Shown here piece by piece: positions 1 through 11,007 of a stretch of 11,118 nucleotides of DNA. Every line of letters starts with the position of its first letter. The first letter of the stretch is position 1. The notes below the pieces were generated by a model that did no database searches, was not told the DNA's origin, and saw only the letters and a list, made by a program, of their open reading frames with translations. The DNA is from Candidatus Agathobaculum merdipullorum (GTDB lineage Bacteria; Bacillota; Clostridia; Oscillospirales; Butyricicoccaceae). The DNA lies in the NCBI GenBank assembly GCA_019115185.1, contig DXDZ01000064.1, forward strand, positions 1 through 11,118. The letters are read 5' to 3'. Made by a program: the position numbers and the translations under genes.

Positions 1-846
1 ATCGCCCTGATCGCAGGCGCGATTTTCGACAACGCGGGCTGGGTGGCCTTCTCGGCCTACTTCATTGGCGTGCTGGCGATTATTGTATCCGGCATCATGC
101 TCAAGAAGTTCAGGATGTTCGCGGGCGAACCGGCTCCGTTCGTCATGGAGCTGCCGAGCTATCACATGCCGACCGCGCGCAACGTGCTCCGCTCGATGGG
201 CGAGCGCGGCGGATCGTTCATCCGTAAGGCAGGCACCGTTATTCTGCTCAGCACGGTTGTGCTGTGGTTTTTGCAGGCTTACGGCTGGGAAAACGGCGCG
301 TTCGGTTCGGTTTCCGACATCAACAACAGCGTGCTTGCTGCGATCGGCAACGGAATTGCGCCGCTGTTTGCGCCGCTCGGCTGGGGCAACTGGCAGAATG
401 CGGTCGCGTCGGTCACCGGCCTGATTGCTAAGGAAAATGTGGTTGCCACCTTTGGCCAGACGCTTGGCTTTGCCGAGGTTGCCGAGGACGGTGTGGAGAT
501 TTGGAGCCAGCTGGCGGCTTCTTTCACTCCGGTCAGCGCGTTCTCGTTCATGTGCTTTAACCTGCTGTGTGCGCCGTGCTTCGCGGCGATGGGCGCGATC
601 AAGCGCGAGATGAACAACGCCAAGTGGACGGCGTTCGCCATCGGCTACATGTGCGTGTTTGCATACTGCGTGGCGCTGATGGTGTACCAGTTCGGCGGTC
701 TGTTCACGGGCGAGGTTTCCTTCGGCCTCGGTACGGTTGCCGCGGTTCTCGTGCTGGCGCTGATAATTTTCCTGCTGGTGCGCAAGCCGGCGAAGGCGGA
801 CGACACGGCGGAGCTGCGCCGTATGAGCGTGCAGGCGAACGGCTGA
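1..846 (+). CDS. feoB: Ferrous iron transporter FeoB, C-terminal membrane portion (5' end outside window)
   Basis: Frame 1 is open from base 1, so track ORF 43..846 is only the internal part. Polytopic hydrophobic protein with FeoB-type segments (GGSFIRKAGTVILLSTVVLWFL, GLIAKENVVATFG, LCAPCFAAMGAIKREM). Followed by the small Cys-rich peptide gene that typically trails feoB in Firmicutes. Confidence 0.85.
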   Translation: MALIAGAIFDNAGWVAFSAYFIGVLAIIVSGIMLKKFRMFAGEPAPFVMELPSYHMPTARNVLRSMGERGGSFIRKAGTVILLSTVVLWFLQAYGWENGAFGSVSDINNSVLAAIGNGIAPLFAPLGWGNWQNAVASVTGLIAKENVVATFGQTLGFAEVAEDGVEIWSQLAASFTPVSAFSFMCFNLLCAPCFAAMGAIKREMNNAKWTAFAIGYMCVFAYCVALMVYQFGGLFTGEVSFGLGTVAAVLVLALIIFLLVRKPAKADDTAELRRMSVQANG

Positions 847-1130: not shown

Positions 1131-1187
1131 CAGTCGGTCACGGACGGAGGGTGCGCGGCATAGACTGGGGAGAAAGGTGGTTTTTCT

Positions 1188-2030
1188 ATGGTGATCCATG
1201 TTGTTCAGCCGGGGGATTCCCTGTATCGCATCGCGCAAGCCTACCATGCGCCGCTCCAGCTGCTGATCCAGCAGAACGAGCTGCACGAGCCTTACCGGCT
1301 CACGCCCGGGCAGACAATCGTCGTGCCGCAGCCCGTGCAGGTACATACCGTCCGGCAGGGGGATACGCTGTCCGGCATTGCCGCGCAGCATAATACGACC
1401 GTGCTGAAACTGCTGCAAAACAATCCGCAGCTCGGCGGTGGGGACCGCATCTGGCCGGGACAGACGCTGGTGATCTCCTATGGCCCCAAGCTGGGCACGT
1501 TTGCGGTCAACGGCTATGCGTATCCGAACATTGACCAGCGAGTTTTGCGTAAAACGCTGCTCTATCTAACGTACTTATCGGTGTTTTCCTACGGATTTGA
1601 CAGTCTGGGCCGCATCCTGCCGCAGAATGCGGAGGCGCTCACGCGCATGGCGCGGCAATACGGCGTGCTGCCGCTGCTGGTGCTGACGACGCTCGGCGAG
1701 GACGGTCAGTTTTCGGGCGAGCGGGCGCAGCAGCTGTTGCGCGACCCGGTCGCACGCGGTGCACTGATTGAAAATCTGGCACAGACCATCGCGGCGCAGG
1801 GCTTCGCAGGGGTGGATATCGACTTCGAGTATATCCCGTCCGAGGATGCGGCGGCCTATGCCGACTTTGTCCGCGCGGTGCGCGCGCGGCTCGAGCCGTC
1901 CGGGCTGACGGTCATGGTCGCGCTCGCGCCCAAGACCTCGGCCGACCAGCCGGGGCTGCTGTACGAGTCGCACGACTACGCGGCACTCGGCGCGGCAGCG
2001 AACGATGTACTGCTCATGACGTATGAATAA
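1188..2030 (+). CDS. LysM-LysM-glycoside hydrolase family 18 protein (YaaH/SleL-like spore peptidoglycan hydrolase), 5' fragment truncated by prophage insertion
   Basis: ATG 1188 follows GGAGAAAGGTGG. Two LysM repeats (VVQPGDSLYRIAQAY..., HTVRQGDTLSGIAAQH...) precede a GH18 region with catalytic GVDIDFEY. The ORF ends ...NDVLLMTYE + TAA (2028-2030), inside the conserved GH18 MxYD/E motif and exactly where GC-rich coding sequence gives way to AT-rich DNA. The rest of the barrel is missing. Confidence 0.8.
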   Translation: MVIHVVQPGDSLYRIAQAYHAPLQLLIQQNELHEPYRLTPGQTIVVPQPVQVHTVRQGDTLSGIAAQHNTTVLKLLQNNPQLGGGDRIWPGQTLVISYGPKLGTFAVNGYAYPNIDQRVLRKTLLYLTYLSVFSYGFDSLGRILPQNAEALTRMARQYGVLPLLVLTTLGEDGQFSGERAQQLLRDPVARGALIENLAQTIAAQGFAGVDIDFEYIPSEDAAAYADFVRAVRARLEPSGLTVMVALAPKTSADQPGLLYESHDYAALGAAANDVLLMTYE

Positions 2031-2045
2031 GTTATTTTATGATAC
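2021..2045. other. Candidate att junction (attL/attR core) of the prophage
   Basis: Imperfect inverted repeat GTATGAATAA (2021-2030) N6 TTATGATAC (2037-2045) at the composition break, 25-50 bp from the recombinase stop codon (2070-2072). The exact crossover dinucleotide cannot be determined from one junction. Confidence 0.4.
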
Positions 2046-2069
2046 ATACAATTGACCGGCTAAGGTTTA

Positions 2070-3620
2070 CTATTCAAATCGTCGTTCGATTTGGATATAG
2101 ATGGTTGCGTCGCCAGCACTGCGCTCGGCGGCGTTTTTTTCGTATGTGATGCGGCTGACTACACTTTTCAGCAGGTCGTTTCGCTCCTGCGCGGTCGCGG
2201 CGTTGGGATAGGCTTCGATCACATGCTCCAGACGCGGGCGCATGGCAGGTGCGCCGCGGCGCTCTTGGTCGATTGCCAGCGCGCGGGCGCTGGCCTTGGC
2301 AAGTGCGCGGTCCAGCTCGGCGAGCTGGCTGTCCAGTTGGCGGCGGCGGGAAACGAAATACTCCGGCGTGTAGACCTCCTGCTCGACCAGCTCGGCGGCG
2401 CGGTCAAGCTGTGCGCGCAGCTTGCGCTGGGCGGCGTGGATCGCGCGAATCTCTTCGTGCGCCTGCGCGGCGCGTGCGTCCAGTTCGCGTTCGACTGTAT
2501 TCTGATGGTCGATGTCCACCTCGTACTCGGCCAGCCATAGCCGCAGCGCGTGCAGCACCGCGTCCTCCACGTCGGCGCAGAATGAGCTGACATTATTGCA
2601 GTCTGCCCAGCGGCAGTCCAGCCGACCGGTGCAGGGCAGGGCAGCGGCCGGTGCACCGTAGGTCATCACATGGCCGCACTTGGCGCAATACAGCAGGCCG
2701 ACAAACGGGTTTTTGAGTTCGTGGTTTTTCTTGAGCGGCAAGCCGGGGGTGTTGTCCAGCAGACGCTGCACGGTACCAAAATCCTCGTCACTGACGAGCG
2801 CTTCATGCAGGCCGCGCGCCTTGACGTAGTCATCTACATACCGGCGCGGCTTGGTCAGCACACCGTCGCGCACGGTGGGCTGCGCGGCCTTGCGTCCCCA
2901 TGTCACATAGCCCGCGTACAGGCAGTTGCGCAGCACGTTGCGCACCGACTGGGCGCTCCACGCGACACCAGCAGAGGTGCGTTCCCCGCGTGCATTGAGA
3001 CGGCAGGCAATGACATAGCAGCCGACACCTTGCAGACGCAAGTCGAAAATCTCACGCACGATTGCGGCCTGTGGCGGGTTTGGTTCAAGCGTGTAGCCTT
3101 TGCCGTTCCGCACCTTGACACGGAAATAGCCGTAGGGGTCGGTCTTGCCCATGTATTTGCCCTCTTTGACCGAGGCGATGCGCCCGGCGATCATGCGGCG
3201 CTTGATGGTCTTATATTCGCGGCGCGACATGAACAGGCCGAACTCGAAGTACTCCTCGTCGAATTCGTTGGCGGGGTCGTAGGTTTTTGCCGGGGTGATG
3301 ATGCGTGTGCCAGAGTATTTGAACGCCTGCGCGACGATGCCCTGGTCGATGCTGTCGCCGCGGGCGAGACGTTCGATCTCCATGACCAGCACGCCGTCCC
3401 ACTGACCGGCCTCGACCTCGGTCAGCAGCCGCTGCATCTGCGGCCGGGCGGCGATGGTTTCGCCCGAGACAATTTCCTCATAGATCCCGCCGATCTCCAG
3501 CCCCATGCGGCGCGCGAGTGCGAGCAGCGCGGCACGATGCCGGGCAAGGGTTTCGCCCTCGCCGCGGGCTTCGGCTTCGGCGTCCGCGCGCGATTTTCGG
3601 AGGTATATCAGATATGCCAT
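2070..3620 (-). CDS. Large serine recombinase (phage integrase)
   Basis: 516 aa. N-terminal resolvase-type domain (AYLIYLRKSRAD with presumptive nucleophile Ser10, VLVMEIERLARG), a recombinase domain, and a Cys cluster/zinc ribbon (YCAKCGHVM...PCTGRLDCRWADC). The long coiled-coil-like C-terminal region is typical of large serine recombinases. SD AAAGGTGA precedes ATG 3620. Confidence 0.9.
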   Translation of the reverse strand: MAYLIYLRKSRADAEAEARGEGETLARHRAALLALARRMGLEIGGIYEEIVSGETIAARPQMQRLLTEVEAGQWDGVLVMEIERLARGDSIDQGIVAQAFKYSGTRIITPAKTYDPANEFDEEYFEFGLFMSRREYKTIKRRMIAGRIASVKEGKYMGKTDPYGYFRVKVRNGKGYTLEPNPPQAAIVREIFDLRLQGVGCYVIACRLNARGERTSAGVAWSAQSVRNVLRNCLYAGYVTWGRKAAQPTVRDGVLTKPRRYVDDYVKARGLHEALVSDEDFGTVQRLLDNTPGLPLKKNHELKNPFVGLLYCAKCGHVMTYGAPAAALPCTGRLDCRWADCNNVSSFCADVEDAVLHALRLWLAEYEVDIDHQNTVERELDARAAQAHEEIRAIHAAQRKLRAQLDRAAELVEQEVYTPEYFVSRRRQLDSQLAELDRALAKASARALAIDQERRGAPAMRPRLEHVIEAYPNAATAQERNDLLKSVVSRITYEKNAAERSAGDATIYIQIERRFE

Positions 3621-3666
3621 AAAATCACCTTTTTTCAGTATATGGGGCGGGAAAATGGATAAAAAC

Positions 3667-3680
3667 AGAACATTTGTTCG
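3667..3680 (-). promoter_or_regulatory. Cheo-box-like (Gram-positive LexA/DinR) operator upstream of the recombinase gene
   Basis: The minus strand reads CGAACAAATGTTCT, a 13/14 match to CGAACRNRYGTTYC with a perfect GAAC-N4-GTTC core. It lies 47 nt upstream of the recombinase ATG and abuts a weak candidate promoter TTTTTA (3665-3660) 17 nt TATACT (3642-3637). Confidence 0.5.
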
Positions 3681-3691
3681 GTAAAAGCGGG

Positions 3692-3736
3692 TGTAAAAAT
3701 GCAGACCACAACAAACGGTGTTCGGTTGTGGTCTGC
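3692..3736 (-). terminator. Rho-independent terminator downstream of ltp
   Basis: Perfect 12-bp stem 3701-3712 / 3725-3736. On the minus strand it is followed by ATTTTTAC. Located 9 nt after the ltp stop codon. Confidence 0.75.
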
Positions 3737-3744
3737 GGGGTTAT

Positions 3745-4281
3745 TTAGTAGCCTGCGGCCGTGACGCCGTATTCGGCTTGCTCCTGCGTAAAGCCATCGT
3801 ACACAAGTTGGTCGATCAATTCTTGACGTGAAAACGACATCATTTCCAGATAGCTTTGAGCGGATTTGGCGGCCTGCTCATTCCAATCTGCGCCGCAATT
3901 ATCTACTGCAAATGTTGCATCTTCAGTGGAGTAGCCTTCAAATTCAAGCTGGCTAATTAGGCCGCTACGCGAAAAAGCTGTAAAAGAAAGATAGCTTTCA
4001 GCCGATCCCAATGCATTTTTCTGGCCCATAGTCATGGTGTCGGCGGGTTCTTCCGGCTCTTCAACCGGTGCAGCAGTCTGCTCAGTCTGCTGTCCATCTT
4101 CTGGCTCGGCATCTGTCAGCTCGGTTGTGGTGGTCTGCGTTTGCTCAGCGGTCTGCTGGTCATCGCCCTTGGTTTCGGTATCATCCGAAGGAGCAAACAT
4201 GCCGATAACAAGCACGATTACGATTGCCCATACCCACCAGCGTTTGTAAAACGGTTTTTTGGCCTTTGCTTTTTCTTCCAT
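3745..4281 (-). CDS. ltp: Ltp-family host-surface superinfection-exclusion protein (TM-anchored, two Ltp repeats)
   Basis: 178 aa. N-terminal TM helix (WWVWAIVIVLVIGMF, no lipobox Cys), an acidic T/E/Q-rich linker, then two ~48-aa repeats matching the Ltp repeat (QKNALGSAESYLSFTAFSRSGLISQLEFEGYSTEDATFAV; AAKSAQSYLEMMSFSRQELIDQLVYDGFTQEQAEYGV). SD AAGGGGGA precedes ATG 4281. Confidence 0.85.
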   Translation of the reverse strand: MEEKAKAKKPFYKRWWVWAIVIVLVIGMFAPSDDTETKGDDQQTAEQTQTTTTELTDAEPEDGQQTEQTAAPVEEPEEPADTMTMGQKNALGSAESYLSFTAFSRSGLISQLEFEGYSTEDATFAVDNCGADWNEQAAKSAQSYLEMMSFSRQELIDQLVYDGFTQEQAEYGVTAAGY

Positions 4282-4300
4282 GATAAATCCCCCTTAAAGA

Positions 4301-4328
4301 TTGACAAAATTAGCCAATCATGTATAAT
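4301..4328 (+). promoter_or_regulatory. Near-consensus sigma-A promoter driving a short rightward RNA
   Basis: TTGACA (4301-4306), 16-nt spacer, TATAAT (4323-4328). Its -10 overlaps a candidate leftward ltp promoter: TTCACA 4349-4344, 17 nt, TATACA 4326-4321. Confidence 0.6.
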
Positions 4329-4334
4329 GGTGTT

Positions 4335-4405
4335 GGAGGACTGTGTGAAACACTCCATATTTGCCCGTTCCGGTGGTGGTGCACTGGGACGGGCGTTTTT
4401 TATTT
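4335..4405 (+). ncRNA. Predicted ~70-nt small RNA (orphan promoter-terminator unit)
   Basis: The predicted start lies ~7 nt after the -10 element. A 13-bp terminator stem (4363-4375 / 4382-4394) has two G-U pairs that would be A-C mismatches on the opposite strand. It is followed by G TTTTTT A TTT (4395-4405). No credible ORF: the only candidate, GTG 4345, runs through the terminator. Confidence 0.5.
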
Positions 4406-4939
4406 CGGGTATCTGCCGTTTGGTAATTCATAGACAGCACAGGTGATTACCGCACTGGTAAACTCGTAATCACTCAGCTTTGGATCGTTCTCGTCCAGAT
4501 CCCAGCCACCTACTTGGATGAACGTCGTATGCTCAAAGCGTGCCAACACTTCAAGTCCATGTGTCAATCGCTTGAAAATCATGTCTTTTACATCGCGTTC
4601 AGATAAAGAAATATTACTGGCGGGAAGCCAGCCAATGTATTGACCATTATATAGAACCTTGACAGCTGTTCCGTCATACTTATTCTTTGGGTCAGCCTGC
4701 AAAGTCAGCCATTGGCCTTTCATGTTACGGTTAATCACTTTTTGCGGGTCAGAGCCGTCGTGAACATGATTAACGCCAGACAGAGTAAACTCCATCGTCC
4801 TCATTAGCTTTGTGCCATCTTTACTGGTTTGCGGAAAGTCTGGGATAGGGATTGTGTCATACTGGCGTTGTTCTCGGATACCCTTGACGATGCCCCAGAT
4901 GAAAAGAGCAACAATAACAATAACTATCAGTGTACACAA
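4400..4939 (-). CDS. Membrane-anchored HIRAN-domain protein (start uncertain; track ORF extends to TTG 5080)
   Basis: A TM helix (LIVIVIVALFIWGIV) is followed by KGIREQRQ and a domain with the HIRAN signature (SGVNHVHDG...GQWLTLQADPKNKYDGTAVKVLYNGQYIGWLPA...LEVLARF). The preferred start is TTG 4939, 9 nt after AAAGGGG. TTG 5080 has no SD and would overlap the rightward promoter at 5012-5040. Confidence 0.6.
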   Translation of the reverse strand: MCTLIVIVIVALFIWGIVKGIREQRQYDTIPIPDFPQTSKDGTKLMRTMEFTLSGVNHVHDGSDPQKVINRNMKGQWLTLQADPKNKYDGTAVKVLYNGQYIGWLPASNISLSERDVKDMIFKRLTHGLEVLARFEHTTFIQVGGWDLDENDPKLSDYEFTSAVITCAVYELPNGRYPK

Positions 4940-5011
4940 GGATTTCAACCCCTTTGCGGTGTCCAAATTGAACACCGATTTTTTAATGCTATGCAATATA
5001 TTGATTTGCCC

Positions 5012-5040
5012 TTGCCAAAACCCAAGATGTGGTGTATTAT
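5012..5040 (+). promoter_or_regulatory. Rightward promoter of the 49-aa ORF / anti-repressor-gene transcript
   Basis: TTGCCA (5012-5017), 17-nt spacer, TATTAT (5035-5040). It shares the pattern TTGNCAAAA...TGTATWATG with the promoter at 4301. Confidence 0.55.
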
Positions 5041-5080
5041 GAAAAACACAAACGCTTGTTCGGTTTCTGGAGGGGATCAA

Positions 5081-5230
5081 ATGACGGATCGAGAAAAATA
5101 TATGCTCAAGCTGATTCGGACTTCGGCTGATCCGTCAGCTGCCATGGAAAAGGTCAGGAAGATTCTTTCTTTTGATCCGTCTCCAACACACGAAGCGCAG
5201 CGTCCTGCAAGGCAGGAGAAGCGTTTCTGA
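5081..5230 (+). CDS. Small hypothetical protein (49 aa) convergent with and overlapping the repressor gene
   Basis: GGAGGGG (5069-5075) lies 5 nt before ATG 5081. Product: MTDREKYMLKLIRTSADPSAAMEKVRKILSFDPSPTHEAQRPARQEKRF. It has its own promoter upstream and an intrinsic terminator downstream. The last 77 nt overlap the 3' end of 5154..5495 on the other strand. Confidence 0.5.
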   Translation: MTDREKYMLKLIRTSADPSAAMEKVRKILSFDPSPTHEAQRPARQEKRF

Positions 5231-5495
5231 ACAATTCAAGCAGCTCGTTTTCTTCGGCGCTTAATCCTGCGTCCTCTTCGGAGGACGCATTTTTATTTTT
5301 CGCGCGCCCCATCAGAAAATCTAAAGAAACATCAAAGTAGGTTGCGATTTTTAGCTTAATATCATCGGGGACAGAGCGTGCACCATTTTCGTATTGAGAT
5401 AGCGTGTTGTTTTTAATGCCCAAAATTTTTGATAGTTCAATCTGGCTCAGATTTCGAGCATTTCGCAATGATGTGATTGTTTGGCCTATTGTCAT
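5154..5495 (-). CDS. XRE-family HTH repressor (CI-like)
   Basis: 113 aa. HTH_XRE core (LRNARNLSQIELSKILGIKNNTLSQYENGARSVP), a linker, and a C-terminal helix (ENELLELFRNASPALQDAALRVL). SD GGGAGGAG lies 7 nt before ATG 5495. Divergent from a Cro-like gene across an operator-rich region. Confidence 0.9.
   Translation of the reverse strand: MTIGQTITSLRNARNLSQIELSKILGIKNNTLSQYENGARSVPDDIKLKIATYFDVSLDFLMGRAKNKNASSEEDAGLSAEENELLELFRNASPALQDAALRVLETDQKKESS
5269..5300 (+). terminator. Plus-strand intrinsic terminator embedded in the repressor coding sequence
   Basis: Perfect 8-bp stem GCGTCCTC / GAGGACGC (5269-5276 / 5281-5288) with a UUCG tetraloop, then A TTTTT A TTTTT (5289-5300). There is no U-tract on the minus side. 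It coincides with repressor linker residues K66-A76 (KNKNASSEEDA). Confidence 0.65.
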
Positions 5496-5640
5496 TGCAA
5501 AGCTCCTCCCAATTTCTCATTTTGTTAAAGTATAACACATATTTTCAAAATGTGAATATCATTGCACAAAATGAGAAATAATACTTGACATTCGCAAAAT
5601 GAGAAAGTATAATAAAATCACGAATTGAGAAAGGAGGAGA
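5496..5640. promoter_or_regulatory. Lysis-lysogeny switch: divergent promoters plus reiterated operator 12-mers
   Basis: Rightward: TTGACA (5585-5590) 17 nt TATAAT (5608-5613), then AGGAGG. Leftward candidate: TTCACA (5556-5551) 16 nt TGT-TATACT (5537-5529). Exact 12-mer CAAAATGAGAAA at 5567-5578 and 5595-5606, with an inverted copy at 5513-5524. 10/12 copies at 5546-5557 and 5621-5632. Confidence 0.8.
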
Positions 5641-5892
5641 ATGATGATGAGATTGGATGTCGTTCGGACGGAAATGGGTATTACACAAGAAAATATGGCA
5701 AATCGGCTTAATATTGCCACTACAACATATTGCCAATATGAGAATGGAAAGCGAATGATTCCTCGAGATATTGCGGAAAAGGTTGCAAAGATTCTTTGTT
5801 GCCCCGTAGAAGAAATTTTTTTACCTGTAAAATTCACAATTTGCGAACATGAGGCGGACGAGCCGGAAAAGGAGGCGGGGCAAAGGAGGTGA
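5641..5892 (+). CDS. Cro-like XRE-family HTH protein
   Basis: 83 aa. HTH_XRE core (VRTEMGITQENMANRLNIATTTYCQYENGKRMIP). There are three tandem ATGs (5641/5644/5647) after AGGAGG (5633-5638), so the true start may be 5644 or 5647. First gene of the rightward operon. Confidence 0.85.
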   Translation: MMMRLDVVRTEMGITQENMANRLNIATTTYCQYENGKRMIPRDIAEKVAKILCCPVEEIFLPVKFTICEHEADEPEKEAGQRR

Positions 5893-5898
5893 GAGAGG

Positions 5899-6015
5899 AT
5901 GAAGAAAGAAAAACCCCACTTGCGGCTACAAGTGAGGTTAAACCAGACTTTCGCCGAATTTACGGAGTGCATGCCATGCATCGCTGCATGGCAGGGCGAG
6001 CGTTCACCTTCTTAA
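5899..6015 (+). CDS. Hypothetical mini-protein (38 aa)
   Basis: AGGAGGTGA (5884-5892) lies 6 nt before ATG 5899. Product: MKKEKPHLRLQVRLNQTFAEFTECMPCIAAWQGERSPS. Its 3' end overlaps the minus ORF 5960..6253. Confidence 0.35.
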   Translation: MKKEKPHLRLQVRLNQTFAEFTECMPCIAAWQGERSPS

Positions 6016-6253
6016 CAAAAGATTCAGATGTGCGATTATGTGTAATTGAATCTTCCGGTGCGGCCAGACCGAACGGGCTGAGTTTCTTCCACTGAGCCAG
6101 TGCGATCAGTCCGGAGGATGGCTTGACGAAACTAATTGCACCATCAGCGCTTGTAAATGCGCTGGTAACAGGGCTTGTCAGGCTACTCTTCACTACGGTC
6201 GAACGCAGCGAAGTGATAGCACCGGACATGATATCATTCTTCGTCGCGTTCAT
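5960..6253 (-). CDS. Hypothetical protein (97 aa), reverse-oriented in the early region
   Basis: Longest open frame in the 5.9-6.5 kb stretch. ATG 6253 follows a weak, close SD (GGAGAAAT). About 65% purine at first codon positions (hand count). S/T/A-rich with no family recognised. A competing plus-strand TTG ORF at 6123..6278 cannot be excluded. Confidence 0.4.
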   Translation of the reverse strand: MNATKNDIMSGAITSLRSTVVKSSLTSPVTSAFTSADGAISFVKPSSGLIALAQWKKLSPFGLAAPEDSITHNRTSESFVKKVNARPAMQRCMACTP

Positions 6254-6485
6254 ATTTCTCCAAATTTGTTACCCATAAGTGGGGCTGCGTCATTTCTGCG
6301 TAGCTCTCACGGTCGCCCGTGAGTTCAGACTGTGCCTTCAACCACGAGGGTTGCTCCGTGTCCAGTCGTTACACCTTCCGCATCAGCGGCTTGGCTCGGC
6401 GTTATCTGGTTGTGATGTCAGTATACAACACGAACAGGGAAAACACAAGCAACGTCCGGATATGGGAGAGAGGAGGTGAGAGGGG

Positions 6486-6626
6486 ATGGAAATCATCATT
6501 AAAGCAACGTCTGAGGAAGTCGCCGCCCTTGTAGTAGCGTTGCAAGGGCGGCAAGAAATCATCGCGGATCAGGTTGCGAAGAATATCACTGCTTGTCTTG
6601 ATCGAGCAATGCGTGATATTTCTTGA
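6486..6626 (+). CDS. Hypothetical mini-protein (46 aa)
   Basis: AGGAGGTGA (6471-6479) lies 6 nt before ATG 6486. Product: MEIIIKATSEEVAALVVALQGRQEIIADQVAKNITACLDRAMRDIS. It contains the 6522-6552 hairpin and overlaps 6586..6759 by 41 nt. Confidence 0.4.
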   Translation: MEIIIKATSEEVAALVVALQGRQEIIADQVAKNITACLDRAMRDIS

Positions 6627-6759
6627 GCATTTCCGCTGTGACTTTCGAGGAAAGCTCAGCTTGTTTTTGGATCATTCGGCCAATGCTATCATCCGGTAAG
6701 TTTGCGGTGCAGCTTTCCAGTGCGTCTTTGCGGAGTTGCTCAAAATCAATATTTTGCAT
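6586..6759 (-). CDS. Hypothetical helical mini-protein (57 aa) with its own leftward promoter
   Basis: AAAGGAGG (6775-6768) lies 8 nt before ATG 6759. Promoter: TTGCCC (6812-6807) 17 nt TGC-TAATAT (6792-6784). Product: MQNIDFEQLRKDALESCTANLPDDSIGRMIQKQAELSSKVTAEMLKKYHALLDQDKQ. Confidence 0.5.
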   Translation of the reverse strand: MQNIDFEQLRKDALESCTANLPDDSIGRMIQKQAELSSKVTAEMLKKYHALLDQDKQ

Positions 6760-6834
6760 CAGTTTTGCCTCCTTTCTCGTTCCATATTAGCACACAGAAC
6801 GGGAAGGGGCAAGAAGCGATAGGGAGGTGAGCGC

Positions 6835-7014
6835 ATGGACCAATCCTTGCAATTTCATGATGAAATCATCTTGAGGTTTAGGCAGGGTCGATTGCAGGAA
6901 GTCATTATCGACGGTATACGGCAAAATGATGTGAAAGCCTTTTCAATTGCGGCATCTCCGACGCAAGTCGCTTCCTATCTGATTGAGCATTCGACCGTAT
7001 ATTCAGATTCCTGA
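6835..7014 (+). CDS. Hypothetical mini-protein (59 aa)
   Basis: GGGAGGTGA (6822-6830) lies 4 nt before ATG 6835. Product: MDQSLQFHDEIILRFRQGRLQEVIIDGIRQNDVKAFSIAASPTQVASYLIEHSTVYSDS. It is just below the ORF-track length cutoff and is followed 28 nt later by a short HTH gene. Confidence 0.45.
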   Translation: MDQSLQFHDEIILRFRQGRLQEVIIDGIRQNDVKAFSIAASPTQVASYLIEHSTVYSDS

Positions 7015-7042
7015 GAACAAGAACCGGAAAGGGGTGAATAAC

Positions 7043-7249
7043 ATGAAAACCATCAAGCGATACCGCGAAGCGCGCGGCATTAAGCAGACCGAATTGGCCG
7101 CGCACTTCGGTATTGCGCAGTCAACCGTGGTCAAGTGGGAAAGTGATGGTAAGTACCCGCCCTGCCAGGTGATGCCCGAACTTGCGGCCTTCCTCGGCTG
7201 CACGACCGACGAACTGTACGCGCACAAACCAGAAAAGGAGGCAATTTAA
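7043..7249 (+). CDS. Short XRE-family HTH protein (68 aa)
   Basis: The true start is taken as ATG 7043 (SD GGAAAGGGGTGA), not the track start 6983. HTH core: IKRYREARGIKQTELAAHFGIAQSTVVKWESDGKYPP. Confidence 0.8.
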   Translation: MKTIKRYREARGIKQTELAAHFGIAQSTVVKWESDGKYPPCQVMPELAAFLGCTTDELYAHKPEKEAI

Positions 7250-7292
7250 CCTGCTATGCCCGCATTATACCACCATGAAAGGAGGGGACACC

Positions 7293-7745
7293 ATGAACCC
7301 AGAGTATCAAAATGCGTGGAAAACCGCCCGCGAAAGGGCAGATCTGACGCAGGAAGCGGCCGCCGAGCTGGTAGACGTGTCGGCAAAGTCGATTGGCTAC
7401 TATGAATCCGGCGCGCGGCACATGACGCCGCAGGTCGCCGCGCAGCTGGCCGACGCCTATCATGCGCCGTGGCTGCGCAACCTGTACTGCACGGAATGTC
7501 CAATCGGCTGTCACCGCAGCCTGCCCACCGAGCCGACTGATCTGCGGGAAGCTGCTATCGGTGCACAGTGTGATTTCCGAGCAGCGGAAATTGGGAAACG
7601 CTTGGATCGGATGATGGAGATTGTAAGAGACGGACGGGTTGACGAGATCGAAATGCCGGAATTTATGGCGATCTGCGACCGGTTCCGTGAGATGCAATAT
7701 ACGCTGGCTAAGTTTGAACTGCTCGTCGAGATGCTGTGTAAGTGA
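7293..7745 (+). CDS. XRE-family HTH protein with Cys-containing C-terminal domain (150 aa)
   Basis: The start is taken as ATG 7293 after GAAAGGAGGGGA (track start 7182 is unlikely). HTH core: ARERADLTQEAAAELVDVSAKSIGYYESGARHMTP. It is followed by YCTECPIGCH and a helical tail. Confidence 0.8.
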   Translation: MNPEYQNAWKTARERADLTQEAAAELVDVSAKSIGYYESGARHMTPQVAAQLADAYHAPWLRNLYCTECPIGCHRSLPTEPTDLREAAIGAQCDFRAAEIGKRLDRMMEIVRDGRVDEIEMPEFMAICDRFREMQYTLAKFELLVEMLCK

Positions 7746-7785
7746 CCAAGCCCTGATGAATACAATACCCAGAGGAGGTGCGCTT

Positions 7786-8016
7786 ATGGCAAACAAAACA
7801 CGCAGGCTGGTCATGGAGCAGGAATTCACGCTGAAAAGCGGCCGCAAAGCCGTTTGTCAGATCTACGATACCGAGGATACCGTGCCGAAGTCCAACGTCG
7901 AAGAGCACAAGAAGTGCGTCGACCACATGAAGGAGGTCGCCGCGAATATCTTCATGCGCGCGGAAATGGCAAAACAGCAAAAGGAAAGCGCCCAGAGCGG
8001 CGGCAACCGCGACTGA
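7786..8016 (+). CDS. Hypothetical protein (76 aa)
   Basis: AGAGGAGGTG (7771-7780) precedes ATG 7786, so the upstream part of track ORF 7639..8016 is discounted. No family recognised. Confidence 0.6.
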   Translation: MANKTRRLVMEQEFTLKSGRKAVCQIYDTEDTVPKSNVEEHKKCVDHMKEVAANIFMRAEMAKQQKESAQSGGNRD

Positions 8017-8098
8017 GCGCAAGCGAAATATTACTTATTTACAGGATACCGGAAAATCCCGGCGCTGTCAAGCGGCTGCGCCGGGGGAAAGGGAAAGT

Positions 8099-8403: not shown

Positions 8404-8870
8404 GAACGTTTTCGCCGAAAACACTGGCTGAGATTCGCGACAGTTACCGTCGTGCTGCTGATCCAGATGAGCAGGTCTATGTATTGGCTGGGTTATATTT
8501 CTGTAACGTGGAGGATATACAGCGTGCGCTCGGATTGCCAGTAAGGAAACCATGGGAAAAGCATTCGTCAGTTCGCACTGTCCAGATTCCTACGCATCAT
8601 GCGTGGACAAAAACGCAGGACAAACGTCTCGCTATGCTCTATAAGCAAGGACTGAACATCGGAGAGATTGCCGACAAAATAGGGAACAGAAGGAAAGATG
8701 TGCAAGATCGGCTGTATGTGCTGCGTAAACTGGGCGTGATACAGGCGCGGCCCCGCTGTGACTGTGCCGCGCAGGGGATGGCTGTCGAGCTGGAAAACCT
8801 ATGCGACGCCTTGCGCGAACTGATAGCGGTGCTACGTGTACTGTCCGAGAAGGGAGGCGGCGATGCGTGA
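8400..8870 (+). CDS. Putative DNA-binding protein (GcrA/Myb-like HTH segment)
   Basis: 156 aa. The GTG start overlaps the preceding stop. The segment WTKTQDKRLAMLYKQGLNIGEIADKIGNRRKDVQDRLYVLRKLG resembles a GcrA-type or Myb-type HTH. Confidence 0.55.
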   Translation: MRTFSPKTLAEIRDSYRRAADPDEQVYVLAGLYFCNVEDIQRALGLPVRKPWEKHSSVRTVQIPTHHAWTKTQDKRLAMLYKQGLNIGEIADKIGNRRKDVQDRLYVLRKLGVIQARPRCDCAAQGMAVELENLCDALRELIAVLRVLSEKGGGDA

Positions 8871-9718
8871 ACTTTATCCTGAACACCGAACTGAGCCGCT
8901 GGCTAAGGGATGAGAAAATCGGCGGCGACCGTGAGGCGATCTTCCTGTATGCGCTCTGGACGTGGTGCGAGAAAAACGCAGCCAACGAGCATAACTACCA
9001 CGAGGGGCGGTACTGGTCGTACAACAGCCTGCGCGGCCTGACGCGCATTTTCCCGTGGACGAAGAGAGAACTTGAAAACACGGTCAACCGGCTGCGCGAC
9101 GCCGGTCTGATCCTGACCGCCAAACTCTCCAAAGACCCCAAGGACACGACGCTGTCTTACACGGTTATCGCGGAAAAAATAGGCGTTTCCCCGTTCAGGG
9201 AAACGGTGTCCCCCACGGGGGAAACGGTGTCCCCCACCGGGGACGCATCCCCGTCCCCCAGCGGTGAAACGGTGTCCCCGCACGGGGACAACCTGTCCCC
9301 CACGGGGGAAACATTAGATGAACAATATAAGACACATATAGTACTACAGGCAAATAAGAATAAACAAGACGCAAATAAGGACGGGCAGCAGGAAAATAAG
9401 CTGACGCCGCGGCAGGCCATGGAGCTGTACAACCAGATCTGCGTTGATCTGCCGCCTTGCATCCGACTGACCGACAAGCGGCAGCGCAGTGTGCGCGCGC
9501 TGTTCAAGAAGGGCATCACGCCTGAGCAGCTGGAAAGCTCATTCCGCATCGCGCAGTCGAGTGAGTTCTGCCGGGGCAAAAACAAGACAGGCTGGCGTGT
9601 TGACTTCGACTGGCTGCTGGACGAGAACAACATCGTCAAGGTGCTCGAGGGCAAGTATGGCGGCAGCGCCATGCCGCCGACCAAGCAGGAAGGGAGTGGC
9701 CGTAAATGGCTGAAATGA
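8867..9718 (+). CDS. Phage replication initiator / replisome organizer (contains ori iterons)
   Basis: The start is taken as GTG 8867 (GTGA overlap with the preceding stop), with GGGAGG 8852-8857 nine nt upstream. The C-terminal WRVDFDWLLDENNIVKVLEGKYG resembles the conserved C-terminal domain of Gram-positive phage replication proteins. There is an internal 7-aa/21-bp repeat block, and a DnaB helicase gene lies immediately downstream. Confidence 0.75.
   Translation: MNFILNTELSRWLRDEKIGGDREAIFLYALWTWCEKNAANEHNYHEGRYWSYNSLRGLTRIFPWTKRELENTVNRLRDAGLILTAKLSKDPKDTTLSYTVIAEKIGVSPFRETVSPTGETVSPTGDASPSPSGETVSPHGDNLSPTGETLDEQYKTHIVLQANKNKQDANKDGQQENKLTPRQAMELYNQICVDLPPCIRLTDKRQRSVRALFKKGITPEQLESSFRIAQSSEFCRGKNKTGWRVDFDWLLDENNIVKVLEGKYGGSAMPPTKQEGSGRKWLK
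9184..9310 (+). repeat. Iteron array (putative phage origin of replication) inside the replication gene
   Basis: GAAACGGTGTCCCC at 9200, 9221 and 9266. Degenerate copies at 9287 (GACAACCTGTCCCC) and 9239 (GGGGACGCATCCCC). Spacing is 21 bp or multiples. Inverted repeat CGTTTCCC/GGGAAACG at 9184-9191/9198-9205. An AT-rich tract follows at 9311-9400 with reiterated AAATAAG. Confidence 0.7.
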
Positions 9719-11007
9719 TGGAGCTGTACCAGCAGGCCGAAAACAGTGTGCTGGGCGTGCTGATTGCCGAGGCCGAGGTGAACGCCGCCGAGGTGTTCTC
9801 GCGGGTAAAGCCCGAGGACTTTGTCACCGGCATCTCACGGTCGATCTTTGAGACCTGCCGCGAGATGTACCGACAGGGCGATGCAATCGACCCGCTGACC
9901 GTCAAGGCAGCCTGCGGCAGCGAGTACATGGCGTGGCTCAAGGAGTTGGACCTGATCACGCCCAGCTCGCGCTACTGCTCGGCCTATGTGGACAAGCTGC
10001 TTGAGCTGTCCAAGCGCTACCGGCTGCAAAAGCTGTTCCGCGAAGCGCTCGACCAGAACCTTGCAGGCGTGCCGATGGAGGAGCTGATCGGCAAGGTTGA
10101 GTGCATGAACGAGGTGCTCGCGGCGGACAACGACCGGCGCAGCCGCACGATGAAAGACTTGATATTTGGCTTTTTCAGCCGCGTCGGACAAAAGCGTACA
10201 TTTCTCGATTGGGGCTTCGACGAGCTCAACCGCTATGTCAAGGTCAAGCGCAAGCACTATGTTGTCATCGGTGCGCGACCCTCGGCGGGCAAGACCGCCT
10301 TTGCGCTGCAAACCGCGATGTACATGGCGCAAAAGCACAACGTCACGTTTTTCTCGCTGGAAACCGATGAGGAGACCATCGAAGATCGCATCATGGCGGC
10401 TGCTGCCTGCATCGATATGGCGCATATCCAGTCCGGCGAGCTGAGCGAGGACGAGCTGCGGATGCTGGTCGAGAAAAAGAGCACGCTGCTCGACCGGAAT
10501 TTTCATTTTTACGAAGCGACCGGCATCACCGCCGAGGAAATCCGCGCGGTGACGAACCGGAACAAGTCGGACGTGATCGTGATCGACTATTTGCAGCTCA
10601 TCCGCGCCCGTGGGCGGCACAAGGACGAGTACGGCGAGATCACCGAGATCACGAAGGCCTTGCAGCGGCTGGCAAAAAGCGGAGTTTGCGTGATTGCACT
10701 CAGCCAGTTGTCCCGCGGCGGCGAGGGCATGAGCGCGCTGCGCGGTTCCGGTCAGATCGAACAGGACGCGGATGTGGTCATGATGCTGGACTACCCAGAC
10801 GAAGATGACATCAAAAGCGAGGAGGAGAAGGCGGACTTCAAAGCGGGTCGCCTGCGCGTGATCGACATCGTTAAGAACAAAAATGGACGGCGCGGTCCGC
10901 TGCAGTTCTGGTTCTTCGGTGCGCAGCAGCGGTTCCTCGCCCAGTGGAAGGGCTTTTATCAGACCCAGCTGCGGATGATGGAGGACGAAACCGACGCATC
11001 CGCGTAA
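9706..11007 (+). CDS. dnaB: Replicative DNA helicase, DnaB family
   Basis: 433 aa. DnaB N-terminal domain (AENSVLGVLI...), Walker A GARPSAGKT, VIVIDYLQL, ALSQLSR and RGSGQIEQDADVVMML motifs. The start overlaps the end of the upstream gene by 13 nt. Confidence 0.9.
   Translation: MAEMMELYQQAENSVLGVLIAEAEVNAAEVFSRVKPEDFVTGISRSIFETCREMYRQGDAIDPLTVKAACGSEYMAWLKELDLITPSSRYCSAYVDKLLELSKRYRLQKLFREALDQNLAGVPMEELIGKVECMNEVLAADNDRRSRTMKDLIFGFFSRVGQKRTFLDWGFDELNRYVKVKRKHYVVIGARPSAGKTAFALQTAMYMAQKHNVTFFSLETDEETIEDRIMAAAACIDMAHIQSGELSEDELRMLVEKKSTLLDRNFHFYEATGITAEEIRAVTNRNKSDVIVIDYLQLIRARGRHKDEYGEITEITKALQRLAKSGVCVIALSQLSRGGEGMSALRGSGQIEQDADVVMMLDYPDEDDIKSEEEKADFKAGRLRVIDIVKNKNGRRGPLQFWFFGAQQRFLAQWKGFYQTQLRMMEDETDASA

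Follow-up and report, generated by a model that had tools for sequence, protein, structure and literature searches.

A temperate prophage in the yaaH/sleL coding sequence of Agathobaculum and its possible excision during sporulation

Serine-recombinase prophages and prophage-like elements occupy sigK, spsM, spoVFB, spoVR, gerE and yabG and leave these genes during sporulation, and all tested elements of this intervening kind excise in sporulation (PMC4191935, PMC5595907, PMC10747680). A passage of Kohm et al. (bioRxiv 10.1101/2021.11.22.469490) that cites Abe et al. 2013 names cotJC, gerE, yaaH and yhbH as frequent integration targets, the examples of Abe et al. lying outside the Subtilis clade. 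On that passage, yaaH as a target is not new and the integration class is already known; a literature search found no report of yaaH insertions being tested. The window analysed here is the full 11,118-bp contig C41 of genome G000, a metagenome-assembled genome (MAG) of Agathobaculum in 86 contigs, and it carries one end of a temperate prophage that is integrated, as in other Agathobaculum species, into the coding sequence of the hydrolase gene yaaH/sleL. New here are the genus-wide frequency of the insertion, the anatomy of its attachment sites with both orientations, a second site in the gene and double occupancy; further additions are the kinship of its large serine recombinase (LSR) with SprA, a LexA box and a candidate directionality factor.

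Like SPbeta (PMC4191935, PMC5499854), the Agathobaculum element is a full temperate prophage lodged within the coding sequence of a sporulation gene, here one of predicted mother-cell expression, with the LSR at the element edge, a conservative excision that restores the open reading frame (ORF; predicted here) and a link to the SOS response. Unlike SPbeta, which sits in spsM of Bacillus subtilis and spans 134 kb, it targets yaaH/sleL in a gut member of the Oscillospirales, its complete relative is about 40 kb long and myovirus-like, its LexA box stands on the LSR gene itself, its developmental excision is a prediction, and a SprB homologue was not found. The skin elements of sigK, with SpoIVCA in B. 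subtilis or CD1231/CD1234 in C. difficile (PMC5025042), are likewise serine-recombinase elements whose excision restores a sporulation gene; skin, however, is defective, a remnant lodged in a regulatory gene that sporulation requires, whereas the present family includes a full phage in its complete relative and interrupts a non-regulatory hydrolase gene. Similarly, yin (yabG, Clostridium botulinum, PMC10747680) and gin (gerE, B. cereus, PMC5595907) are serine-recombinase elements in mother-cell genes of the sigmaK class, with growth-phase or sporulation-linked excision; they are small and strain-restricted, whereas the Agathobaculum elements form a genus-wide family of full prophages. The Listeria comK prophage phi10403S, a case of active lysogeny, shares with them the insertion in a coding gene and a reversible excision that may act as a switch, but that switch is not linked to sporulation. 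In Listeria, excision proceeds without virion production inside host cells.

Prophage integration in the yaaH/sleL gene

The 5' fragment of the gene (Table 1) encodes 280 aa that comprise two LysM repeats (E 1.5e-28) and the motif GVDIDFEY within a truncated GH18 domain, which covers only profile positions 78-182 of 317, and ends in LLMTYE, with a TAA at 2028-2030. A preliminary description made from the letters alone had read this ORF as a LysM-LysM-GH18 gene with DIDFEY halted at LLMTYE-TAA and had placed a convergent 516-aa LSR close to the junction; the ORF and Pfam calls bear out the former, and the LSR indeed reads toward the junction, with its stop codon 39 nt from the TAA. The drop in GC content that it saw at the break stands for the 39-nt spacer at 2031-2069, which is AT-rich (about 31% GC), but not for the LSR gene, which at 62-69% GC is host-like; the true low-GC island begins 3' of the break beyond the LSR gene, at about 3600-7000. 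Its inverted repeat at 2021-2045 is present in weak form, with about 8 of 12 arm positions matching, but went unreported by the repeat search (6-nt seed).

A GH18 profile search of the genome returned exactly one further piece, at C64:31910-32230 (-), covering profile positions 207-314. The other end of the prophage, which the same description had proposed to look for, is present there: a 3' fragment of 145 aa (codons 281-425) lies at G000:C64:31847-32293 (-) and, read in gene orientation, starts ...CCCTTATGAATGGGGCTATGCC. The left junction attL (...ACGTATGAATAAGTT...) and the attR of C64 have TATGAAT in common, and joining the flanks in silico at this shared core restores a single 425-aa LysM-GH18 ORF, ...LLMTYEWGYALSEPMAV..., which reads ...MTYEWGY... 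across the join. In the rebuilt protein, a pair of LysM repeats at the N terminus precedes a GH18 barrel that has the DxDxE motif (DIDFE). Its residues 3-423 align with B. megaterium YaaH (4S3K, E 9.6e-83) and it aligns also with B. cereus SleL (4S3J, about 1e-82), the MTYEWGY stretch being identical between the rebuilt protein and 4S3K. The gene product is thus of the YaaH/SleL type, a LysM-GH18 enzyme for which the properties of a spore cortex-fragment lytic enzyme are predicted, namely N-acetylglucosaminidase activity on the cortex and a location in the spore coat or cortex. The phage arm brings a TAA directly at the junction, so that lysogens encode only the 280-aa stump, from which half of the GH18 barrel is missing.

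The uninterrupted state is preserved in the sister species G001 (95% protein identity), where a single locus, L003, covers both flanks and represents the empty site. Positions 311-2341 of L003 correspond to C41 1-2028 and positions 2335-3817 to C64 32287-30820, and the 7-nt overlap between these two matches is the core; alignment to an uninterrupted homologue, the route suggested at the outset, therefore defines attB. A survey of 24 other genomes of the genus together with G000, 25 species representatives in all, found an intact gene of 424-426 aa in 13 and a gene split after codon 280 in 10 (G000, G006, G007, G010, G011, G014, G018, G020, G023, G024). The 13 intact genes rule out the alternative that homologues end naturally at residue 280. 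The closest LSRs all come from Agathobaculum records, among them A. ammoniilyticum Sanger_34, sp. Marseille-P7918, LCP25S3_E8 and Candidatus A. stercoravium, and LSR orthologues with 84-99% identity adjoin the yaaH gene in 8 Agathobaculum records. On the tree, a clade unites six split species with the intact G001, which is nested among them, and the distribution requires at least four gains or losses. An assembly or binning artefact that fused phage and host DNA would be in keeping with a fragmented MAG of 86 contigs; because the same junction occurs in 10/25 genus genomes, cultured isolates included, it is not a chance or assembly effect, and with its recurrence on both sides and in two independent metagenome contigs as well, this explanation is effectively refuted and its probability negligible. 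The interruption of the gene, its recombinase, the second prophage end and the restoration in silico can be regarded as secure; confidence in the integration and its reversibility is equally very high.

Attachment sites and the recombinase family

The junctions of the 10 genomes align base for base. The attL consists of the host B arm followed by TAT-GA-ATAAGTTATTTTATGATACA, and attR reads TGTATCMTCCCYACCCTTAT-GA-ATGGGGCTATGC. The reconstructed attP spans 42 bp, TGTATCAT-N7-CTTAT-GA-ATAAG-N7-ATGATACA, in a layout of 8+7+5 / GA / 5+7+8; strong symmetry is seen only in this reconstructed site, which carries two inverted motifs per half-site, and its architecture is the usual LSR design. The predicted excision junctions read ...TATGAATGGGGC for attB and ...CCCTTATGAATAAGTT for attP. 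In G023 the element is inverted, so that the LSR adjoins the 3' fragment, the phage arms are swapped and the central dinucleotide in the phage frame is TC instead of GA; the G011 element is apparently inverted too, as judged from one end only. In serine integrases the central dinucleotide sets polarity, and this property, together with the natural GA/TC pair, places the inferred crossover at the GA of TAT-GA-A, positions 2025-2026. The attB sequence is conserved across all intact alleles. Scanning with a pattern that fits attL and attP alike returned two contigs only, both attL, and is uninformative.

The gene contains a second attachment site, with core TATGACTGG, within the NYGYDW motif, and this site is occupied by a different LSR element. 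The gene is split there in G021 (L121/L122) and in G024 (L114/L115). In G024 both sites are filled, leaving the gene in three pieces, and one of the inserts extends over C10 22244-56896 (about 34.6 kb).

The only PDB relatives of the LSR are structures of SPbeta SprA/YokA (9DXH), alone or fused to the directionality factor YotN. The alignment with SprA is full-length (E 8e-41, residues 4-492 against 16-509); the catalytic motif of the N-terminal resolvase domain, which holds the serine nucleophile, reads YLRKSRAD in the LSR and YLRRSRQD in SprA, and a CxxC lies within the aligned C-terminal part, a region of the zinc-ribbon/coiled-coil type, where the Pfam search did not report Zn_ribbon_recom in the LSR. 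A wider survey covered 80 related loci with at least 42% identity, from Lachnospiraceae, Oscillospiraceae, Anaerocolumna and others. In 29 of these the LSR stop lies no more than 160 nt from a yaaH-like fragment, and 26 of the 29 fragments break at the position aligned to residues 280-285 (site 1), the other 3 at the second site. The site-1 fragments end at the break, except in the inverted elements L035 and L040, whose fragments start there. Fragments of CotJC-type Mn-catalase genes, split near Pfam positions 60-66, adjoin the LSR in a further 19/80 loci from diverse Clostridia (43-48% identity; L039, L053, L057, L061, L063, L065-L067, L071, L075, L080, L083, L099, L100, L102; L055, L081, L094, L096), and asparagine synthase fragments do so in 3/80. 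With 48/80 loci adjoining yaaH-like or CotJC-type fragments, the predicted targets of this LSR family are dominated by mother-cell sporulation genes.

Two related loci show further arrangements. In Lachnoclostridium sp. UBA6558 (L058 1185-9614), a 7.1-kb LSR element that splits a yaaH-like gene itself carries, on the other strand, a complete LysM-GH18 paralogue of 432 aa, which may be a replacement copy. A second SprA-like LSR of G000 (525 aa, 46% identical to that of the window; G000:C3:88-1958, L134) runs toward a Cys-rich ORF of 110 aa and overlaps its end; this ORF has no Pfam match and may be another split gene.

Prophage content and control regions

In G023 the two gene halves lie on one contig, about 40.2 kb apart, and the interval encodes a terminase large subunit, head protease, major head protein, tail sheath, tape measure and tail fibre; by its predicted gene content this element is a complete-looking myovirus-type prophage. 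In the window, the left chromosomal flank is followed by the split gene, the LSR, a lysogeny module and a replication module (Table 1), and the contig end at 11118 falls inside the prophage. The gene order feoA-feoA-feoB-yaaH of the host flank recurs in L137. What related elements share is limited to the LSR cassette, two short islands, a cassette of 350 bp at 7745-8095 and some of the replication-gene sequence, the remainder being mosaic. The short islands, at 4287-4403 and 4959-5074, are 82-91% conserved although the surrounding lysogeny genes are unrelated between elements. The attL side is assembled over 9.1 kb and the attR side, on C64, over 2.9 kb of 42% GC with accessory genes. The latter cargo (G000:C64:32398-34841), probably of accessory or defence function, encodes a 284-aa protein without an assigned family, a coiled-coil membrane protein of 319 aa and a protein with a SocA/Panacea domain.

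Table 1. Features of the 11,118-bp window around the interrupted yaaH/sleL gene
Feature	Position	Strand	Evidence
feoB 3' end, host (left chromosomal flank)	1..846	+	FeoB_C and Gate domains
Candidate mother-cell (sigmaK/sigmaE-type) promoter of the hydrolase gene: CAC-N16-GCATAGACT, i.e. AC-N17-CATAnnnT	1139..1166	+	conservation in 23 genomes
yaaH/sleL-type LysM-LysM-GH18 gene, 5' fragment: codons 1-280 and phage-supplied TAA	1188..2030	+	ORF, Pfam, reconstruction
attL: host B arm, core TATGAAT (2022-2028), crossover GA (2025-2026, inferred), phage P' arm ATAAGTTATTTTATGATACA (2027-2046)	2005..2046	.	shared core, recurrence, inverted G023 element
Large serine recombinase, 516 aa, SprA-like	2070..3620	-	Resolvase (PF00239, E 5.8e-16) and Recombinase (PF07508) domains, SprA alignment
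LSR control region: terminator hairpin 3701-3736, LexA/Cheo box CGAACAAATGTTCT 3667-3680, invariant CCATATACT 3637-3645, then ribosome-binding site	3637..3736	-	kept in 9/9 aligned elements
Lysogeny/immunity module	3745..7745	.	Pfam and PHROGs; mosaic between related elements
Ltp-type superinfection exclusion protein	3745-4281	-	Pfam/PHROGs
Membrane protein without assigned family	4400-5080	-	Pfam/PHROGs
CI-like repressor	5154-5495	-	Pfam/PHROGs
Cro-like protein	5641-5892	+	Pfam/PHROGs
Further helix-turn-helix regulators	6983-7249, 7293-7745	+	Pfam/PHROGs
76-aa ORF, candidate recombination directionality factor	7786..8016	+	co-inheritance only
Replication module: DnaD/O-like initiator 8801-9718, DnaB-type helicase 9706-11007	8801..11007	+	PHROGs, Pfam DnaB/DnaB_C

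The regions upstream of yaaH in 23 genomes of the genus are unalignable except for a block CAC-N16-GCATAGAyT and the ribosome-binding site, in split and intact genes alike. This block, also written AC-N17-CATAGACT or AC-N17-CATAgAyT, corresponds to AC-N17-CATAnnnT, which we take to fit the sigmaK consensus of the Bacillus literature, with a -10 that fits sigmaE too; a count of the strict motif over the whole 1.7-Mb genome gives 5. The yaaH promoter is therefore a candidate sigmaK/E-like promoter, predicted from its conservation and retained in lysogens. Ahead of the LSR, the Gram-positive LexA box GAAC-N4-GTTC is found once in the window against an expectation of 0.10. Invariant CATA-type boxes at the LSR and at the 76-aa ORF were also considered and rejected as sporulation promoters, as they have no matching -35.

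The 76-aa ORF has its own strong ribosome-binding site and a hairpin downstream. It is 82-100% identical in every Agathobaculum element that has this LSR and enough sequence, the inverted G023 element included, while its flanks differ, and a 66%-identical homologue likewise lies in a yaaH-inserted LSR element. Searches of Pfam, PHROG and PDB gave no match to it, its AlphaFold2 (AF2) model is weak (pLDDT 63) and found nothing below E 1 with Foldseek, and no homologue was found near distant LSR relatives. Its co-inheritance with the LSR makes it a candidate directionality factor.

Timing of excision and its consequences

At integration, the SprA-family LSR recombined the 42-bp symmetric attP with attB inside the MTYEWGY-coding motif. 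In the proposed sequence of later events, the resident element would work, by analogy, like SPbeta in spsM. On DNA damage, LexA release and repressor inactivation would lead to expression of the LSR and the directionality factor, and the phage would leave to replicate. During sporulation, the same LSR-plus-factor reaction would take place in the terminally differentiated mother cell and restore yaaH, which could then be driven from its own sigmaK/E-type promoter, the forespore retaining the prophage. Because serine-recombinase excision is conservative, such excision rebuilds the 425-codon gene exactly. Restoration of yaaH by excision timed to sporulation is given an even chance. It is favoured indirectly by the conserved sigmaK/E-like promoter, by unrelaxed purifying selection and by an LSR clade with mother-cell genes as its predominant predicted targets.

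Selection on the split gene was followed through the alleles that can be rebuilt, all of which (9/9) are open, with 425-426 aa. The dN/dS among them is 0.02-0.16, at dS 0.34-1.4. When lineage-unique codon changes were counted in the clade of six split species and the intact G001, the split lineages had N=13 and S=116 (omega about 0.04), and the intact sister had N=6 and S=21 (omega 0.095). Nothing in these counts suggests relaxed constraint on the split yaaH. Strict vertical inheritance of the element, which would make this argument decisive, was rejected in view of discordant dS and mosaic elements: synonymous distances of LSR and yaaH correlate broadly, with some pairs discordant, such as G000-G018 (LSR dS 0.146 vs yaaH dS 0.63).

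Sporulation genes are present in the host, whose assembly (1.70 Mb, 56% GC) is 90% complete. It encodes Spo0A (297 bits) and SpoIID (293 bits), and a sigG-like gene lies next to two sigma genes resembling sigE/sigK. Of 31 sampled genomes of the genus, G000 among them, 25/31 have SpoIVA, 29/31 have a full-length SpoIIE-like protein and 31/31 have SpoVAD. A literature search found no paper on sporulation in Agathobaculum.

Sporulation-timed restoration has to be weighed against a tolerated knock-out, an alternative that is a serious one though its probability is somewhat under even. Here the insertion would lie in a gene that is silent during growth and dispensable, the MTYEWGY-coding stretch would be used merely as an invariant, widely shared sequence, lysogens would do without SleL/YaaH, and excision would occur solely on SOS induction in the lytic cycle, a healthy gene reflecting recent insertion or regular precise curing. 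Several observations that weigh against developmental timing are at the same time what such a knock-out would lead one to expect. The LexA box before the LSR, kept in 9/9 elements, argues for SOS rather than developmental control of the recombinase. The elements are full, mosaic and probably active phages. Discordant LSR and host divergences for some pairs, this mosaicism and the four or more gains or losses on a tree in which the intact G001 stands among split species suggest that the insertions are perhaps recent and may be younger than the species, and recent insertion would alone explain the intact halves and the low omega. Conservation of attB in all intact alleles would make reinfection easy. 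In Bacillus, moreover, yaaH/sleL mutants still germinate and the gene is non-essential. Further points against a developmental role concern the sporulation programme itself: a sporulation promoter could be assigned neither to the LSR nor to the 76-aa candidate factor in the upstream regions of the aligned elements, SpoIVA, SpoIIE and SleB/CwlJ-type Hydrolase_2 were not found in the 90%-complete MAG, and Agathobaculum is, to our knowledge, described as non-spore-forming. Exact-pattern attP scans of viral and metagenome contigs gave no match, an uninformative result.

A knock-out without function is harder to reconcile with the high prevalence of the insertion (10/25 species representatives), with 9/9 split alleles that show neither decay nor relaxed selection, and with the promoter retained in lysogens; a functional link is favoured by the strong bias of the LSR clade to two mother-cell genes and by the way in which every analogue tested by experiment behaves. 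It is improbable, by comparison, that the G000 element is a locked-in or decaying prophage that can no longer excise and leaves the gene permanently broken. A search of the G000 MAG for the structural genes that the complete relative carries found no homologues, and only the 9.1 kb and 2.9 kb at the two ends of the element are assembled, as such a remnant would predict. However, phage contigs can be expected to go missing from a binned MAG of 86 contigs, and both att sites, the LSR ORF and its control region have stayed intact, near-identical to their counterparts in related elements.

A second sporulation gene of the genus is interrupted in a similar manner. The spoVAD gene is split at ...NNMGAAMAP|AAYD... 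in 8-9/31 Agathobaculum genomes, with insertions at G045:C30:36500-46200 (L141), G023:C12 94217-110013 and G042:C8 98943-141388. The G045 insert, of about 8 kb, has a 596-aa LSR adjoining the 3' fragment and a non-phage cargo of cyclophilin, a ClpP-like protease, an Fe-alcohol dehydrogenase and asparaginase; in G000, contigs C58 and C68 both end precisely at the spoVAD site, with an overlap of 105 nt. In Bacillus, spoVAD is a forespore gene, and an intervening element in such a gene would conflict with the mother-cell rule. If the spoVAD element excises to restore the gene, a mechanism compatible with germ-line retention is needed; we know of none in this element class, whose members known to us all lie in mother-cell genes. 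That several independent serine-recombinase elements (in yaaH at two sites, in spoVAD) gate a cryptic programme of sporulation in Agathobaculum is a speculative and rather unlikely extension.

The recombinase system offers a toolset with a 42-bp attP, an attB in a conserved coding motif, a natural orientation-flipping GA/TC pair, an additional site within yaaH and a short-listed candidate for the directionality factor. Agathobaculum is a common gut butyrate producer, and about four in ten of its species representatives carry the insertion; germination, and hence inter-host transmission, may therefore differ between lysogens and non-lysogens. If excision is developmental, yaaH/sleL would become a tested target after its listing in 2013, and phage-gated reconstitution of sporulation genes would no longer be confined to the Bacillus and Clostridium models but would include a genus abundant in the human gut.

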